Of a stretch of DNA of 64,000 bases, positions 11,467 through 58,623 are shown piece by piece. The notes beneath the pieces were generated by a model. The model was given only the letters and a program-made list of their open reading frames with translations. It was not told the DNA's origin and ran no database searches. The position numbers and the translations under genes are program-made. Each line of letters opens with the position of its first letter. The first letter of the stretch is position 1. Location: contig CM000434.1 in NCBI GenBank assembly GCA_000165345.1, positions 160,001 through 224,000 of the forward strand, in the 5' to 3' direction.

Positions 11467-12525
11467 TTAGAAATCTGCATTCAAATCAAACTTTTGGTCA
11501 TCTTGATTGACCATAACTCCAGCCATTTGATATTCACCAACTCTCTTTTCGAAGAAGTTAGTTTTACCTTGAAGTGAAATAAGGTCCATCCAATCAAAAG
11601 GATTAGAAACGTTGTAGATTTTTGGAATATCCAAGGCAAAAAGTAATCTATCAGCAACAAATTCAATATATTGGGCCATAAGTCTCGAATTCATACCAAT
11701 AAGATCAACAGGAAGAGAGTCACAAAGAAAGTTTCTTTCAACTTCAACAGCTTCTGATATGATTTGTTGTACTCTAGGAGCTGGTAATTTAAATTTAAGG
11801 GCTTTATATATTAAACAAGCAAAATCAGCATGGAGACCTTCATCACGACTAATAAGTTCATTAGAAAATGTGAGTCCAGGCATAAGTCCACGTTTTTTAA
11901 GCCAAAAAATTGCACAAAAGCTACCAGAAAATAGAATTCCTTCAACAGCACAGAATCCAATAATTCTTTCAGCAAAAGATCGCTCAGAATTCATCCATTT
12001 AGTTGCCCATTCTGCTTTCTTTTTTACAGCTTCAATATGAGAAATTGCTTCAAAGAGCATTTGACGTTCTTTAATTTCAGTAATATATCTATCAATAAGT
12101 AATGAATAAGTTTCACTATGTATTTGTTCAATAGACATTTGAAAAGCATAATACATTCTAGCTTCCGGTATTTGTATTTCTCTAAGGAAATTTACTGCTA
12201 AGTTTTCCATAACAATACCATCACTTGCAGCAAAGAATGCTAAAACATATTTGATAAAATGTCTTTCAGGGTCTTTAAGACTTTCCCAATCTCTAGTATC
12301 TTGACTTAGATCAATTTCTTCAGTAACCCAAAACGACGCTTCAGCTTTTTTATACATTGACCAAATATCTTTAATTAATTCTTTCAATTCATTTCTATTT
12401 TCTCGGCTGTATTTAAGCATTGGTTCATTAACTTGATTTATTTTTACTTCATTCACAAGTTTTTCAATATTTTCTTCATCTTTTGTTTCCTTTGTTAAAA
12501 TTACATTATTATTTTCCTCTGTCAT
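11467..12525 (-). CDS. RNR2: Ribonucleotide reductase small subunit R2 (class Ia, di-iron/tyrosyl radical)
   Basis: Canonical R2 motifs are present: [23 protein letters not shown] (Asp ligand), [10 protein letters not shown] (Glu/His ligands plus radical Tyr), [11 protein letters not shown] and [10 protein letters not shown]. The C-terminal R1-binding tail ends FDLNADF. ATG verified. Confidence 0.9.
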
Positions 12526-13419
12526 CTTTTTTTTCCTTTTTTTAAATTGATTTTAGTTACTCTCTATGTTTACTATTTTGATATTAATATTAATTTACGT
12601 GTGTGTTATTATTATATTATTAATATTTAAAAAATATATATATTTTTTAAAAGAAAAAAAAGAAAAACAAATATTATTACAAATAAATATTTTTATTTTA
12701 AAAAATTTATTAATTTTCTTTAATTTGTCTTTGTGCATATTGTTTTCTTTCAATTTATTGATTTACCTGAAATTTATTATTACTTTCTGTGTATTGGCGC
12801 CTAATGACCTGTTAAAAAAGGTATCGATAAATGTATTTATAAGATAATTAAATGATGGGGGGCGGTGAGTTCAAAAAATGTGGGAAAAGGCGGGCTATTT
12901 GCATGTCAATAGTAGTAGTTTTTACGATAGTTATTTAAAATTTTATTGATAATAAATGAATAAATCATTAATAGAATAAAACATTATTGTAGGAACAAGA
13001 ATAGAAATGTCGAGATATAAAGTATTTATTCTAGAGATTTAAGATTTGAAAAATACGATTTTACTTACTTTCAACTTTTTCTTTTTTCCCACTTTCTTCC
13101 ATTTTTTTTCTCCCCCAATTATTTTATATTTGTATTAATTATTTGAATAAGAGAAATAATTTATTTCATTTTTATTTTTTAAGTAAAAGAAAGAAATATA
13201 GATGGAAAAATTATAAGAAGGAAGAAAAAAATAAATAGGAAAGAAAAATTCAAAAATTCTTTTTTTTTCTCTAAATATTTTCAAGTATGAGACGGCGTAT
13301 AGGTACCCGGTATACTCACTCTCCCCTCTTTTTCATCAATTTTTTGCACACAAAAAAAAAATAAAAAACAAGAAAAATAAAAAAATTTGAATCAAATTAA
13401 TTAATTAAAGGAGAAAAAA
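12526..13419. promoter_or_regulatory. Shared divergent promoter region of R2 and the R2-like gene, with E2F-type and other GC motifs
   Basis: ATTGGCGCCTAAT at ~12793-12803; GGGGGGCGG at ~12857; AAAAGGCGGGCTATTTGCATGTC at ~12885-12908; GTACCCGGTATACTC at ~13296-13310. Confidence 0.45.
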
Positions 13420-14439
13420 ATGAATGAATCAAAGAAAGAATTATTAGAACAGCAAAAAAATGAATCAATCTTATTAGATAATCCTTTTAGATGGGTTTTA
13501 TTTCCAATAAAATATAGTAGATTATGGAGTTTGTATAAAAAATATGAGGTATCATTTTGGACAGCAGAAGTAATATCACCAATGGAAGATAAGACAAAAT
13601 TAATGAATATGGACGAAAAATTACTTGATTATATTGAAATGGCCTTTGCAAAACGTATTTATATTGATAATACATGCTTAGATACTGTATTGTTAACATG
13701 TGAATTATTAGGACAAGTACAAGTACCAGAAGCAAGAGGTTACTTTTCATTTACAATGTGTATGGAGAATATATATAAGGAATTATTTATGAATTATGTT
13801 GAAATGATACGTAAAAATAAGGAAAAGATTGAAAGGACAGATGAAGTGGAAAAGAAGGATGAGAATAATTTAAATAGTAAAATATCTAAAGAAGAATATG
13901 AATATAATTTAGAGAAGAAATTGAATGAATTAGAAGATTTTACAAAAATGAAGGAATTAGTTGGTAATTTTTACGATGAAGATACTTTATTTAGTGAAAA
14001 ACTTATCTATTATGTAATAATTAAAAAGATATTCTCATCTAGTATTCATTTACTTAGATTATCTTTTTCAATGAGAAATATATCAGAATCTGAATTACCT
14101 ACTCAACTTTGTGATGGTTTAGATAGAATACGTAGAGATGAACAATATCAAGTTGAGTTTTGTTTAAGTATTGCAAAATCTATGAAAACTAAACCAAGTA
14201 ATGATCAAGTAGTTAATTTATTAGAGCAAGCTATTATGTTAGAGAAGAACTTTATATTTTCAATTGTAGATCCACAAGTTCTTCAAATTGAAAGAGAAGA
14301 TATTGTTGCTTTTCTTTTATTTAATGCTGATGAAATACTTGTAGATTTAAAGTATCCAAGACAATTCAATGTTTCTAATCCATTCATAAATATTATGAAC
14401 GATTTTCCGTGCTCCTTCTCAAGAAGAAGCTGTTGCTAG
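13420..14439 (+). CDS. Divergent R2-like protein lacking several di-iron ligands and the radical tyrosine (catalytically inactive R2 paralogue, Rnr4/R4-like); 3' end uncertain
   Basis: Aligns with R2 throughout (NPFRWVLFPIKYSRLWSLYKKYEVSFWTAEV, QVPEARGYFSF, FNVSNPF). The ENIHSEMY equivalent is ENIYKELF (His to Tyr, radical Tyr to Phe), and the helix that carries a Glu ligand in R2 lacks it. The listed ORF ends ...FPCSFSRRSCC. The +1 frame continues to 14530 ending ...SQDF, just before an N gap. Confidence 0.65.
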   Translation: MNESKKELLEQQKNESILLDNPFRWVLFPIKYSRLWSLYKKYEVSFWTAEVISPMEDKTKLMNMDEKLLDYIEMAFAKRIYIDNTCLDTVLLTCELLGQVQVPEARGYFSFTMCMENIYKELFMNYVEMIRKNKEKIERTDEVEKKDENNLNSKISKEEYEYNLEKKLNELEDFTKMKELVGNFYDEDTLFSEKLIYYVIIKKIFSSSIHLLRLSFSMRNISESELPTQLCDGLDRIRRDEQYQVEFCLSIAKSMKTKPSNDQVVNLLEQAIMLEKNFIFSIVDPQVLQIEREDIVAFLLFNADEILVDLKYPRQFNVSNPFINIMNDFPCSFSRRSCC

Positions 14440-14539
14440 ACAAACTCTTACACAAACTCTTAAAGCTGCTCATTATAAAGCTTACCTAGAAATTTTTAGC
14501 AATCAATTGTCAACTTCTCAAGATTTCTAATTCACACTG

Positions 14540-14546
14540 NANNNNN
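14540..14546. other. Assembly gap (N run)
   Basis: Sequence reads gnannnnnag. Confidence 0.95.
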
Positions 14547-17689: not shown

Positions 17690-20600
17690 ATGTCAAAATA
17701 CACATTCACTGAATATAGAAGATTGAATAATTCTATATTCAGATTGGATGTATTTCCATTCATTACTATTTATATTGTTTTAATTTCAATCTTATTAGGA
17801 GAAATCTTCAGTTTAAGTAAAACAATCACTTATAAAGATGTTTTTGATTCATTCATTTATTTAATAAATTTCATACAAAATCTTAATAATTTAAATAATA
17901 CCATAAATTCGGTACCAGTACAAAATAATGAAATATTTAATGATTTAATATCAAATAATACAAATTATTTAAATGCTTCTGAATTGGATGATTCAAATTT
18001 AAGTGAAGAATTACAACTTATTATTGATAATGTTCCAATTAAATATATTGTTGCAATTTTTATCACAATTTTAATAAATTTATTAACTTTTCTTATGACT
18101 CAATGGAATTTGAAATTTAAAAGTATTATTTGTTTTAGTAAAATAAAAAAAAAATCAAATGGAACTTGTACAAGTTTAAATAATAAAACCACTACACATA
18201 TTATGGTAAATAGTTCCAAATATCCAAGTGAACTTTGTCCTTTAAAATATTCAACATGTATTGAACATGTTGGAAAACTTAAAGATTTTTATTCTTTAAC
18301 AAAAATTAAATCATGTTCAATTATTAATATGAACAAATCTTTTATTATACAAGTTGATGCAATTGATTATTATAAATATAAATCAGAAATTGAGAAAATT
18401 CTTTTAAAAAATATTAATAAAAGTGATAATTCCAATTTATTACCAAATTCTTCAAATATTAATTGGATAAAATTGATTAATTATGAAAAGAAAACTTTTA
18501 TATATAATAAATCAAAAGAAACTTTTATTAAAGCAAATTATCCAATAAATCTTCCAATAAAATCATATTTTGATCAATTAATACATAAAGGTGGTTTAAA
18601 TATGAATGAAATTATACTTCATAATAATTTATATGGAATTAATAATTATGAAATACCAAAAGAAAAATTTCTGGATTTATTTATTGAACAAATTATATCA
18701 CCTTTTTTCTTATTTCAAATATTTTGTGTATTACTATGGATACTTGATGAATATTGGCAAATGAGTTTATTTACTTTATTTATGTTATGTACTTAAGAGG
18801 CTCAAATGGTATTTAGAAGACTTAAAGAATCTGATGAAGTTAGAAATATGAGAAGACCATCATGTTTTATTCTTGTATATAGAGAATATACTTGGAAATA
18901 TATTAATACTGATCATTTATTACCTGGTGATATTATTGCAATTTCATCCACAATTTCTTCCAATTCTTTAAAAAATAAGAATTTTGATGAAAATAATAAT
19001 AATAATAATCAAGATGAAGAAGCAGTTTCTATTGCTCCTTGTGATTTTGTATTATTATCTGGAAGTATTACTGTAAATGAAGCAATGCTTACTGGTGAAT
19101 GTACTCCAAAAATGAAAGTATCAATGAATAATGACGAAGATGAAAATGAACAAGATAATAAATTGAATGAAAAGACTTTTGATATTGATGGATTTAAAAA
19201 TCATGTAATATTTGCAGGTACCAATATTATACTTACAAGATCTTCAATTGTTACAGAAAATAAAGAGTTCCAATCTATTATTAAAAAGATTTCAAATGAA
19301 TACCATAATTGTTATAATGTTGATAATATGAACTCTATTAAGAATCCAATGAACTTTAATGAAAAGTATAATAATAATGTCACTTCTTCTTACATTAAAT
19401 ATGATAATGATAAAATGATTTGTATTGGATATGTTCTTAGAACTGGATTTAATACTTATCAAGGAAAATTAATCCGTACAATTTCATCATCAGCTGAAAA
19501 GATCTCATCTAACAGTCTTGAATCACTAATTTTCTTAATGATGTTAATTTTTTGCTCATTAATAGCATCTTCTTATGTACTTTATTATGGAATTAATGAT
19601 CCTTCCAGAAATAAATTCAAATTAATTATCTCCTGCATTCACATTATAACTTCAGTTATTCCTCCAGAATTCCCCATCACACTTTCTGTTGCTGTAACTA
19701 TGGCAGTTGTTCAATTAACCAAAAAAAAGATTTATTGTACTGAACCATTTAGAATTCCATTTGCTGGTAAACTTAGAATATGTGCTTTTGATAAAACTGG
19801 TACTTTAACTAGTGATAAAATGATACCACATGGATTATTTGGAATTAACTTGTATAATAATGATGATACTTCTTGTATTACTTTTGATGATAATGATAAG
19901 TATAGTAATAACAATGAAGATAAGGATGAGATGAACAATAAAAAGTTAGCATCAGTATCGGGATCAAGGCAAGTGTTGGGATCAGAACCAATATCCAATT
20001 CTTCTGTTGATATACCATATTTATCTGATCTTATTATGGGATGTTGTAATGGACTTTCACTTAATGGAAAGACCTTGGTTGGAGATCCTATGGAAAAATC
20101 CATCAAAAAGAAATCATCCTGGAGAATTCATCACTCATCTGAAAATAATTATCATAACATTAAAGATAATTCAACATTTTCAATAGTTAGAAGATATCCT
20201 TTTTCACCAGAAGAACAAAGAATGACCAATATTGGAATTTTGCATATTCCTTCAGAAAAACAAAATTCATCATCAAGTAAATCTCAAACTTCTTCATCTT
20301 CATCTCAATCTCTATCTCCGTCTCATTCTGTAAAATTTCATAAAAGTCTTTCAAAACCTGATCCAAAAACTTATGGTCTTGTCATTTCTAAAGGAAGTCC
20401 AGAAATGATGCTTCAATTCTTTAAAAAAGATCCAGAATTTGATCAAAATTTATACAAAAATGTTGTACATGAATGTACTAAAAAAGGGTATCGTATATTA
20501 GCACTTGGTTCAAAATATTCTTGTATTAATGAAGTTAATAATCATCATTTAAAAAGAGAATTCTTTGAAAATGATTTAATATTTTGTGGTTTTCTTGCAT

Positions 20601-22072
20601 TATATTGTCCAATTAAAAAACATTCCAAATCTGTTATTCAAGAACTTAATCAAAGTAATCATCAATGTATTATGATTACTGGTGACAATATTCTTACAGC
20701 TTTCCATGTTGCAAAAAATGTATCAATTACCAATAATTGTAAAGATATACTCATTTTATCAAAATCTGATAATGAAAACTCTAATCATATTAATTATATA
20801 TGGAAATATTCAAATGGTAATATTTTTAATAAATTTGATAATAATTTAACTCATTTAATTCATATTAATAATGAATTTAATATTGGTATTACTGGTAATG
20901 TATTCCAATCTTTTATTGAAGACTTCAAAGAAACCAAAATACTTGAACAATTTCTTTTATTTACAAAAATATATGCAAGAATGTCTCCAAAAAATAAACA
21001 AACTCTTATTAATCTTTATAATAATATGGGTAATATGACTTTAATGTGTGGAGATGGTACCAATGATGTTGGTGCTTTAAAACATTCTCATGTTGGTATT
21101 TCTCTTCTTTCAAATGAATCATCATCAGATTCTAATAATAAAGATAATAATAATTCTCCATTTAATATTAAAAAAAATCAAAAATCCAACTTTTTTGAAA
21201 TTAAAAAAGATATTGAAGCCAGAATTAGACGTGGTGAAAAGCTTACAAAAGCTCAAATTCAACAAGAAATCTTGAAAGAATTCCAAAATATGGATGAAAT
21301 ACCAAAAGTAAAACTTGGAGATGCTTCTATTGCTTCACCTTTTACATATAAAGGTGAATCTCCCAATTGTATTATTAAACTTGTTAGATATGGAAGATCA
21401 ACTTTAACCACAGTATTATTAATGTATAAATTAATGGGATTAAATAGTATTGTATCTGCATTTTCTATGAGTGTATTAGCTCATGATGGAGTTAAATTTG
21501 GTGATTTTCAAACTACTGTAGAATCCATTATTATGAGTGGCTTATTCTTTCTTGTACTTAAAAACAAGCCAGCTAAAAAGCTTGTTCCACAAAAACCACC
21601 AAATAGTATTTTCAGTCCTATGATATTTTTATCATTTATTATTCAAGCATTAATTCATTTATTTGTTATTTATTTTGGATGGAAAATTTCATATTCTTTA
21701 ATGCCATTAAACTATTCAACAAATATTGATGGACCTTTTGAACCAAATATTATTAATACAACAATGTATTATTTATATACAGCTTGTCACTTAGCTTGTT
21801 TTCTTTCAAATGCACAAGGTCATCCATTTACTACTCCATTATCTGAAAATAAATATCTTATTTACACTTCAGCTTTAGTTATTTCATTCTTAATTACTTC
21901 AATTCTAGGAATATTTCCACATTTAAATATATTATTTTCATTGGTAACTTTACAAAGTAAATATTATCAATCAATTCTAATACTTCTTGTATTATTTGAT
22001 ATTTTTGGTACTCTATTAATTAATCAATTATTTAATCAACTTCATATTTACTTTGACAAATGCAAACATTAA
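17690..22072 (+). CDS. P5A-type cation-transporting ATPase (Spf1/ATP13A1-like); one reading frame interrupted by an in-frame TAA at 18794-18796
   Basis: The two listed ORFs 17690-18796 and 18806-22072 are in the same frame, and the M2 helix region continues across the stop (...FTLFMLCT*EAQMVFRRLKESDEVRNM). P-type motifs ICAFDKTGTLT, ITGDNILTAF and GDGTNDVGALK are present, plus the P5 M4 motif SVIPPEFPITLS. The low-complexity insert NENNNNNNQDEE is in the A-domain region. Confidence 0.75.
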
Positions 22073-22196: not shown

Positions 22197-28010
<5,814 letters not shown>

Positions 28011-39670: not shown

Positions 39671-39896
<226 letters not shown>

Positions 39897-40889
39897 ATTG
39901 AAAGGTTGACCTGGATTATCAAAATCAAAAGGATAATCTCCACTAACTGTATAACTTGTACCACTTAATAATACACCCGAACTTAAACAATATGAATTAC
40001 TTGACAAAGTTGCAAAAAATCCATTCATTCTATAATAAAACTGACTCTGATCGCTTGTAAATACTGCTACTGTACCTCCCCATCCGTATCTTTTATCATT
40101 AACTGGATACATACTTGCTGAATGTAGATGTATTTCTAGTTCTTCTGGCCAAGATTTATAATTTTTTGGAATTCTATCACCATTTGGTACTCCAGATTTC
40201 TCATCAATTCCGGTACTATTTACATAATACAAATTTTTATCATCAAAATAGTATCTTTGTTGAAATTCATCCCAGAAATAAGTCCTTCTATAAGGATCTG
40301 CCAAAGGAACATTTCTTGTAATTTTATATTTACTAAAGTTATTTTGTCCATTACCAAAAGTTAATTTATTCACATTTGAATACACTATGCTATGACAAGG
40401 ATAATATGGTCCACTTCCTGAAATATAAAAGTAAAACCCTCCTGGCCATCTTAATTTCTCAACTACCAAGTCAAGATCCATCAATTTTGGCTTATACGGA
40501 AATGGAAAGTAAGCATAAGATCTAGCCCATCTCTCTTCTGAAGTATATCCTGTAGATTCCACATCTACTGTTTGTGCTGCAAAATTTATCATCAACTTAC
40601 AGTGGTATAAATCACCATTCTGAATTGTTACCAAAGTTTCTTTATCATTTTCTGCGTTAAATTTACCCACAATCCTAAAAGATACTCCAGAATACCAAGG
40701 TAGCTTATTTGAACTAAATGTATATACTAACCCTTCACTGGTAATATCTTTCCATGCTTTTGTCCAACTGAAACTTGGTGGTAAAGAATTTATTTCTAAA
40801 ATATTAAATATAAGAATATGTATTAATATAAAATATAAAATTCTTCTTATTTTCATAAACTTTAAATCATATTGTCTAAATTCTAACAT
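39897..40889 (-). CDS. TSP1-EGF adhesin gene A, exon 1: signal peptide plus a ~330-aa N-terminal extracellular domain
   Basis: The ORF-track start at 40901 is a TTG; the first ATGs in frame are at 40889 and 40856. The signal peptide is MKIRRILYFILIHILIFNILEINS. The exon ends ...DNPGQPFN immediately before GTAAGT, a consensus 5' splice donor. Coordinates +/-2. Confidence 0.55.
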
Positions 40890-41479
40890 TTTTCTTTTCA
40901 ACTTTGTTTTGATTACATTGAATTAAAACCTTTTATTGGTGTTTTGAAACTAATTAAAATTAATTCTTCTTTCCATTCATGAATTATTCAATCCTTATTT
41001 ATAGCCAATACTTTTACTTAATTTAAAAGAATACACCAAATGTGATATTATTCAGCAACCTTTAAAAAATATAATTTTATTAATAATATAATTTTAAATT
41101 TAATACTTTTCTCTGTGTGTGTAATTTATCCTATTATCAACTCCTTTTCCCATGTTCAATTTAGATTAATATTTATTTCAATATTAAACAGCAGGTAATA
41201 GGTACCATTTCAGCCCGCCAAAACATGCCCCACTTATTTCCAATATTATTATCAATGCTGTATAAGTAATATAAATAATATAATAAGAATAAATATAAAT
41301 ATGATCCATGTAATAATATATTAGATAAATTAAAATTTATCTATAATTTACCATTATTTTAGTTAAATTAATAATTTATTAGAATTTGTGAAGGATAATA
41401 AATATTAATCCATCGAAATAAGCTTTATGTTTTAATTACAATTATCCAGAATTAAGGTTTAATAAAGAATTCATGCTCA

Positions 41480-45096: not shown

Positions 45097-45334
45097 ATAT
45101 ATATTTATTTACTTATATTAATATATAAAAAGTCAACAATAATTAATTTGAAAATAGGATTATATTGAAAGAAAAAACAAAGATAATAATAATAAGAAAG
45201 TAAAAAGAGAAATTTAATCAGTATTTGCTCTTGTTAATATTAAATTTAGTACAATTTTAAAAAAAAAGGTATATATTTTTAAAAAAATACATTTATATTG
45301 ATTAAAAGTACAATTTTCAAATAACAAAAAGAAA

Positions 45335-58186: not shown

Positions 58187-58331
58187 TTCTAACTTCATTT
58201 TTTTTTTTTCCTCCCTAATTTCAAGAAATATCCACAAATTCAATCTAATAATTAGACTAGGGAAGAGGAGGAAATGAAAGATTATATACTCTTATACTTA
58301 TTAATAGTTATTATTTGATCCTTATCCAATN

Positions 58332-58363
<32 letters not shown>

Positions 58364-58623
58364 ATGTGGATGCATTTTTCTTATTTAAAAAAAAATTACG
58401 TGTTATACCGGTATATAAAAAATTTTGTTAAGGGGGAAAAAGTCGAGTAGAAAAAAAAAAATTTATGAATTAAAAAACAAATTGTTAGAGAAGAGAAAGT
58501 AGTTGAAAGTGTTTTGTCAAAGTTAAGTTTCAAAAAATAAGGACAATTCTGTTTGAAATAATTAAATTGATTTAAGAAAAGGTTTTGTAAATTAAAAATA
58601 AACCTTAAAAAGAAAAAAGAATA

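Follow-up and report, generated by a model that had tools for sequence, protein, structure and literature searches.

Spf1 of yeast and ATP13A1 of man, P5A ATPases with solved structures, are transmembrane-helix dislocases of the endoplasmic reticulum (ER), and the M4 segment of enzymes of this group usually carries the motif PPELPxE, one version of the general form PP(E/D)xPx(E/D). We describe here a gene of Cryptosporidium parvum whose product is, judged by its sequence, an unexceptional type V ATPase, nearest to these two enzymes, and whose reading frame is split in one assembly by an in-frame TAA. The gene lies in a stretch of 64,000 nucleotides (assembly GCA_000165345.1, contig CM000434.1, forward-strand positions 160,001 to 224,000), the whole of which is hereafter called the window; coordinates are counted from its first base. 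The window most likely belongs to the 2004 Sanger shotgun assembly of C. parvum Iowa II, as suggested by its Ns, by a base that marks the IOWA lineage and by its correspondence to an Iowa II protein model. That reference is known to contain ambiguous bases, indels and early stops that split or truncate gene models, and better assemblies repair them (PMC8744675, PMC12179316). The evidence assembled below indicates that the TAA is very probably a single wrong base in an old draft consensus, rather than a feature of the organism, and that the true gene is continuous over 1460 codons.

The ATPase gene and its in-frame stop

Two open reading frames on the plus strand, 17690-18796 (368 aa) and 18806-22072 (1088 aa), share one frame; the TAA at 18794-18796 forms the boundary between them, and past it they are separated by three sense codons. 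The sequence around the stop is TTA TGT ACT TAA GAG GCT CAA ATG GTA. Translation read through the TAA, which is codon 369, gives 1460 residues, among them long, Asn/Ser-rich insertions of low complexity. An earlier, sequence-only reading of the window had noted that the TAA splits a single ATPase reading frame, and this observation is confirmed: both ORFs together encode a full-length ATPase in which each of the motifs named in that reading (PPEFP, DKTGT, TGDN and GDGTND) was found. The features of the locus are as follows.

17690..22072, plus strand: P5A-type ATPase gene, 1460 codons and terminal TAA (translation, TIGR01657 and structure matches); numbered 6g720 in other Cryptosporidium annotations
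17690..18796, plus strand: N-terminal ORF of 368 codons, covering two additional putative helices and the N-terminal domain, then M1 and the larger part of M2 (Pfam, hydropathy); left out of the 1088-aa Iowa II protein model
18794..18796, plus strand: in-frame TAA, its middle base (A at 18795) private to the window assembly; T (TTA, Leu) elsewhere (alignment)
18806..22072, plus strand: truncated gene model of 1088 aa, starting at the first ATG past the TAA (exact product match to EAZ51499.1 / XP_001388305.1 / QOY40949.1)
18839, plus strand: G, giving GTT (Val) at residue 384 where other sequences have CTT (Leu) (alignment)
19661..19675, plus strand: PPEFP, the M4 motif (motif scan of the translation)
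19790..19804, plus strand: DKTGT phosphorylation motif, residues 701-705 (motif scan of the translation)
20678..20689, plus strand: TGDN motif, residues 997-1000 (motif scan of the translation)
21050..21067, plus strand: GDGTND motif, residues 1121-1126 (motif scan of the translation)

Family assignment

The profile of type V ATPases (TIGR01657, P-ATPase-V) was compared with P0082, an intact orthologue that has Leu in place of the stop and Leu in place of Val 384 and is otherwise identical to the window's conceptual product. The match scored 774.4 bits, where the cut-off is 618.25, and ran in a single stretch over profile positions 13-1054 of 1055. The P-domain elements by which the P-type ATPase superfamily is recognized (DKTGT, TGDN, GDGxND) are all present in the window's enzyme. 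In a search of solved structures with a region of 174 residues around the stop, the best matches were yeast Spf1 (6xmp, E about 2.5e-33) and human ATP13A1 (9jbx and others, E about 5e-31), P5B enzymes being found by the same query at far weaker values (about 1e-16 to 1e-13). In a gap-free alignment, the residue facing the stop is Met in Spf1 (6xmp) and Phe in human ATP13A1 and the Chaetomium P5A enzyme alike; the stop lies inside the hydrophobic segment that follows M1 and is directly followed by a conserved Glu. The assignment to P5A and the placement of the stop within M2, both proposed from the letters alone, are supported.

Domain matches on the two sides of the stop agree with this picture. 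For the C-terminal ORF, Pfam gives E1-E2_ATPase and Hydrolase. The N-terminal ORF shows a weak match to PF00690 (Cation_ATPase_N) and, at residues 120-152, one to PF23143 (2TM_P5A-ATPase) of 25.2 bits, slightly below the cut-off of 27; the hydropathy profile places hydrophobic segments at residues 14-47 and 110-141, upstream of M1. The M4 motif reads PPEFPIT, with an acidic third residue as in P5A enzymes and with Thr, not Glu or Asp, in the last position. A role as an ER transmembrane-helix dislocase is predicted for the Cryptosporidium enzyme by its kinship to Spf1 and ATP13A1. A paper on modelling of the malaria P5-ATPase contains nothing on essentiality or on Cryptosporidium.

The alignment also bears on the proposal that the TAA lies within a very short spliceosomal intron, or else is read as a sense codon. 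The sequence-only reading had stated that no GT..AG intron fits, which is incorrect as worded, since the codon is enclosed by 19 in-frame GT..AG pairs (18789-18797, of 9 nt, and 18784-18816, of 33 nt, among them); its conclusion nevertheless stands, because splicing at any of them would take away residues that have gap-free counterparts in M1 and M2 of Spf1 and ATP13A1. Against both versions of the proposal, the same DNA, bar one base, runs as one open frame in every other strain except CpBGF, which has a deletion of its own at 18406. A reassigned genetic code, which the earlier reading had also argued against, is further opposed by the window's numerous ORFs of 1000 to 3000 codons, in which no internal TAA occurs. 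We regard splicing or recoding at this codon as extremely improbable.

Codon 369 in other strains and species

The DNA of nine other loci (L001-L009) was retrieved and the codon aligned with that of the window. Position 18795 is A in the window only, and T, giving TTA (Leu), in all nine of the other sequences: C. parvum IOWA-ATCC (CP044417.1), CpBGF (CP141123.1), 43IA8 (CP029785.1) and GCA_048859185.1 (CM109966.1), two contigs from Logan read sets, C. tyzzeri, C. hominis UKH1 and C. meleagridis. The expectation that orthologues would carry a hydrophobic residue one substitution away from the stop is therefore realized by the same codon throughout, in related species as well as in other C. parvum, and the comparison with related genomes that had been proposed as a check gives a uniform answer. 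The region equivalent to 17690-22072 is an unbroken ORF of 1460 codons in IOWA-ATCC, 43IA8, GCA_048859185.1 and the Logan contigs, and an intact gene is retained in four Cryptosporidium species.

A second position, 44 bases downstream of 18795, places the window among these sequences. G at 18839 occurs, among the ten aligned sequences, only in the window, IOWA-ATCC and CpBGF; 43IA8, GCA_048859185.1, the Logan contigs and the other species lack it. Since this base is common to them alone, the three are taken to form one lineage, and the A at 18795 must then have arisen after, or outside, their common IOWA ancestry. The G itself is a non-synonymous polymorphism specific to the IOWA lineage, changing Leu to Val in the linker between M2 and the A domain.

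The closest match in a large protein search, and the sole close relative returned, was the C. meleagridis protein, with 93% identity and Leu at the position of the stop. Under the name 6g720, full-length proteins of other C. parvum strains and of C. hominis, 1460-1463 aa long, fall in the 90% identity cluster of the 1088-aa product, and all of these full-length members read LCTLEAQ at that position. P0082, the full-length protein with Leu, occurs in 31 indexed blocks of the public collection (24 contigs were read), and exact-sequence look-up found the 1088-aa product in two contigs only, both of them from NCBI-annotated assemblies. The full-length IOWA-type protein (Leu 369, Val 384) is absent from the protein collection. 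A look-up with the upstream neighbour gene returned Logan contigs, all of the non-IOWA type, together with the assemblies already compared, and a scan of JGI metagenome contigs for either allele found none.

These comparisons bear directly on the idea that the TAA is real and is bypassed, either by readthrough or by reinitiation at the ATG three codons on, so that a full-length or a two-piece pump is made. The frame is kept, both halves appear undecayed, and the ATG at 18806 does follow the TAA, all of which favor such a bypass. It requires, however, a real TAA, which the sequence comparisons oppose, and programmed readthrough in particular is countered by the lack of conservation of the stop, TTA standing in every other DNA sequence aligned. 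UAA is the least leaky of the stop codons; UAA-GAG-GCU fits neither the UGA-CUAG nor the UAG-CARYYA readthrough context, and UAA-G is a poor one. Reinitiation after an ORF of 368 codons is very inefficient in eukaryotes. We consider that there is hardly any chance of a bypass of either kind.

A more serious contender is a genuine nonsense allele, fixed or minority, in the uncloned oocyst population of 2004; with it, that stock would be naturally null or hypomorphic for the P5A ATPase. Such an allele would be in keeping with the drift of IOWA lines during calf passage (PMC8744675, PMC12179316). It is opposed by TTA in both later IOWA assemblies, one of them made from the same DNA source as the 2004 project (PMC8744675), by the intact state of the gene in the four species, and by exact-sequence look-up, in which the 368-aa product that ends at the TAA has no record in a collection of 15 billion proteins. 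The related notion of a pseudogene was rejected: the ORF has no further disabling changes, the 4.4-kb frame of the window being the same as the intact IOWA-ATCC ORF except for one base. Taken together with the accuracy of the assemblies, considered in the following section, these observations leave a nonsense allele unlikely, and we favor a wrong base in the draft.

Accuracy of the draft and of CpBGF

The 2004 Iowa II assembly contains 18,558 ambiguous bases and is 99.93% identical to IOWA-ATCC, the DNA for the two having come from the same source, that of the 2004 project 14 years earlier (PMC8744675). IOWA-ATCC and CpBGF, for their part, differ by 143 variants genome-wide, 108 of them indels (PMC8744675). 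Modern IOWA lines thus differ by about 143 variants per 9 Mb, or about one per 64 kb, mostly indels, as against 0.07% for the 2004 draft. Because this gap of 0.07% to IOWA-ATCC far exceeds the drift between IOWA lines, most of the differences private to the 2004 sequence are errors, which argues against a nonsense allele at 18795.

The window itself illustrates the point. It holds 19 Ns, and over the 15.3 kb shared with IOWA-ATCC it shows isolated base differences at 12809 and 18795 only, in addition to two patches, 14409-14546 (errors and Ns) and 24127-24154 (Ns alone). Over the whole 64 kb, comparison with CpBGF and 43IA8 finds as private to the window three low-quality, N-containing patches (14409-14546, 24127-24154 and 58331-58383), the length of one CT microsatellite, and the substitutions at 12809 and 18795. 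In the first patch there are four substitutions, six Ns and one inserted G (14409). This insertion shifts the frame of the ribonucleotide reductase small-subunit gene at 13420-14439 (plus strand), leaving 339 aa where IOWA-ATCC, CpBGF, 43IA8 and the Logan contigs have 369 aa, so that consensus errors capable of breaking an ORF do occur within 5 kb of the TAA. None of the N-containing low-quality patches includes the A at 18795, which stands as an isolated difference; this counts against an error, and in favor of a nonsense allele.

Several further observations were made in the course of these comparisons. The gene at 13420-14439 is one of two paralogous ribonucleotide reductase small-subunit genes, adjacent and divergent (the other at 11467-12525, minus strand), just upstream of the ATPase locus. 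The patch at 24127-24154 falls inside the ORF 22197-28010 (minus strand) and introduces seven X residues into a condensin-like (Cnd1/NCAPD3) protein of 1937 aa; that at 58331-58383 is intergenic, with Ns and clustered private differences. The CT repeat at 39778-39795, which in the window is 6 bp longer than in 43IA8 and 18 bp longer than in CpBGF, is at the edge of the ORF 39756-40901, near a thrombospondin-repeat gene.

The remaining evidence for a nonsense allele comes from CpBGF (CP141123.1), a telomere-to-telomere assembly in which a one-base deletion in an A6 run at window position 18406 frameshifts the same N-terminal part of the ATPase. At face value this disruption could hint at relaxed constraint in laboratory lines, and so weighs against an error in the window. 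CpBGF has, in all, about a dozen private differences in the 64 kb, mostly deletions in homopolymers and repeats (29037, 29079-80, 39784-95 and 44606), with five clustered substitutions at 45097-45321. This is well above the approximately one per 64 kb predicted from the published variants between IOWA-ATCC and CpBGF, and the private differences may be residual errors of long-read assembly. Because they exceed this read-based expectation, the deletion at 18406 is probably an assembly error too. Were both the TAA of the 2004 stock and the deletion in CpBGF real, two laboratory lines would have lost the N-terminal part of the P5A enzyme independently, and the ER helix dislocase would be dispensable in C. 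parvum passed serially through calves, or even selected against; we think this very unlikely.

The probable error at 18795 is a T recorded as A, which turned TTA (Leu) into TAA in the IOWA draft consensus, and the writing of TTTA as TTAA would be a miscall of the kind made at the boundary of a run. We infer that the A arose in base calling, consensus or cloning rather than as a true allele of the 2004 DNA; it may have come from a base-call error, from a mutation in a clone at low coverage, or from a minority allele caught in the consensus. A base-call error in the draft was the first of the options offered by the sequence-only reading, which did not choose among them, and it is favored by the nine DNA comparisons over the two others, a nonsense allele and readthrough.

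Truncated gene models

The false stop would have led the original annotation to place the start of the gene at the ATG three codons further on, and so to record a "hypothetical protein" of 1088 aa; this truncated model then appears to have passed by homology into Cryptosporidium annotations whose DNA has no stop. The 1088-aa product is in fact exactly that of EAZ51499.1 / XP_001388305.1 (C. parvum Iowa II, "hypothetical protein") and of QOY40949.1 (CPATCC_002570, IOWA-ATCC), and truncated models starting MVFRRL are present in the 90% cluster from C. hominis UKH1, C. tyzzeri and CpBGF. The reading frames and the models compare as follows.

IOWA-ATCC (L002): open ORF of 1460 codons; model of 1088 aa
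C. hominis UKH1 (L009): open ORF of 1463 codons; model of 1091 aa
C. meleagridis (L001): open ORF of 1438 codons; model of 1064 aa, partial
C. tyzzeri (L008): N-terminus reaches an assembly gap, frame open well upstream of the model start; model of 1087 aa
CpBGF (L007): ORF broken by the one-base deletion in the A-run at window 18406; model of 1071 aa, partial

In three of these five (IOWA-ATCC, UKH1 and C. tyzzeri) the model starts, on open DNA, at the Met three codons past the false stop. The CpBGF model has the same Met start, but its own upstream frameshift makes it weaker evidence for copying; that of C. meleagridis starts about 60 residues upstream of this Met and is without some 305 N-terminal residues. 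The simplest explanation of the shared start is that it was copied from the Iowa II reference. A published list of variants in CpIOWA II genes, covering non-synonymous changes, frameshifts and stops, does not name the gene, likely since the variant is outside the annotated CDS, and a full-text literature search for cgd6_720 returned no paper.

The stop codon itself carries little biological weight, and the practical value of the present analysis lies in the correction of gene models. Several genomes that encode the full protein have models without about 370 N-terminal residues; what is lost is the pair of putative P5A-specific helices together with M1 and the greater part of M2. Work that relies on such models for tags, knock-outs, antibodies, proteomics databases or orthology tables would be misled. 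The case also illustrates how one wrong reference base can spread by way of homology-based annotation.

Comparison with known systems

As a protein, the ATPase resembles Spf1 and ATP13A1 in the features common to the three: the type V profile over the whole length, the DKTGT, TGDN and GDGTND motifs and an M4 motif of the PPE type. The likeness may extend to its two extra hydrophobic segments at the N-terminus. It is unlike them in its long Asn/Ser-rich insertions, in the sequence PPEFPIT, and in the Pfam score of its N-terminal hairpin, which falls under the cut-off. As an annotation problem, the false stop is the same kind of event as the errors already described for the 2004 Iowa II reference (Baptista et al. 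2022, PMC8744675; the CpBGF paper of 2025, PMC12179316). Unlike the Iowa II models that have since been repaired, however, the truncated ATPase is still present in the annotations of both IOWA-ATCC and CpBGF.
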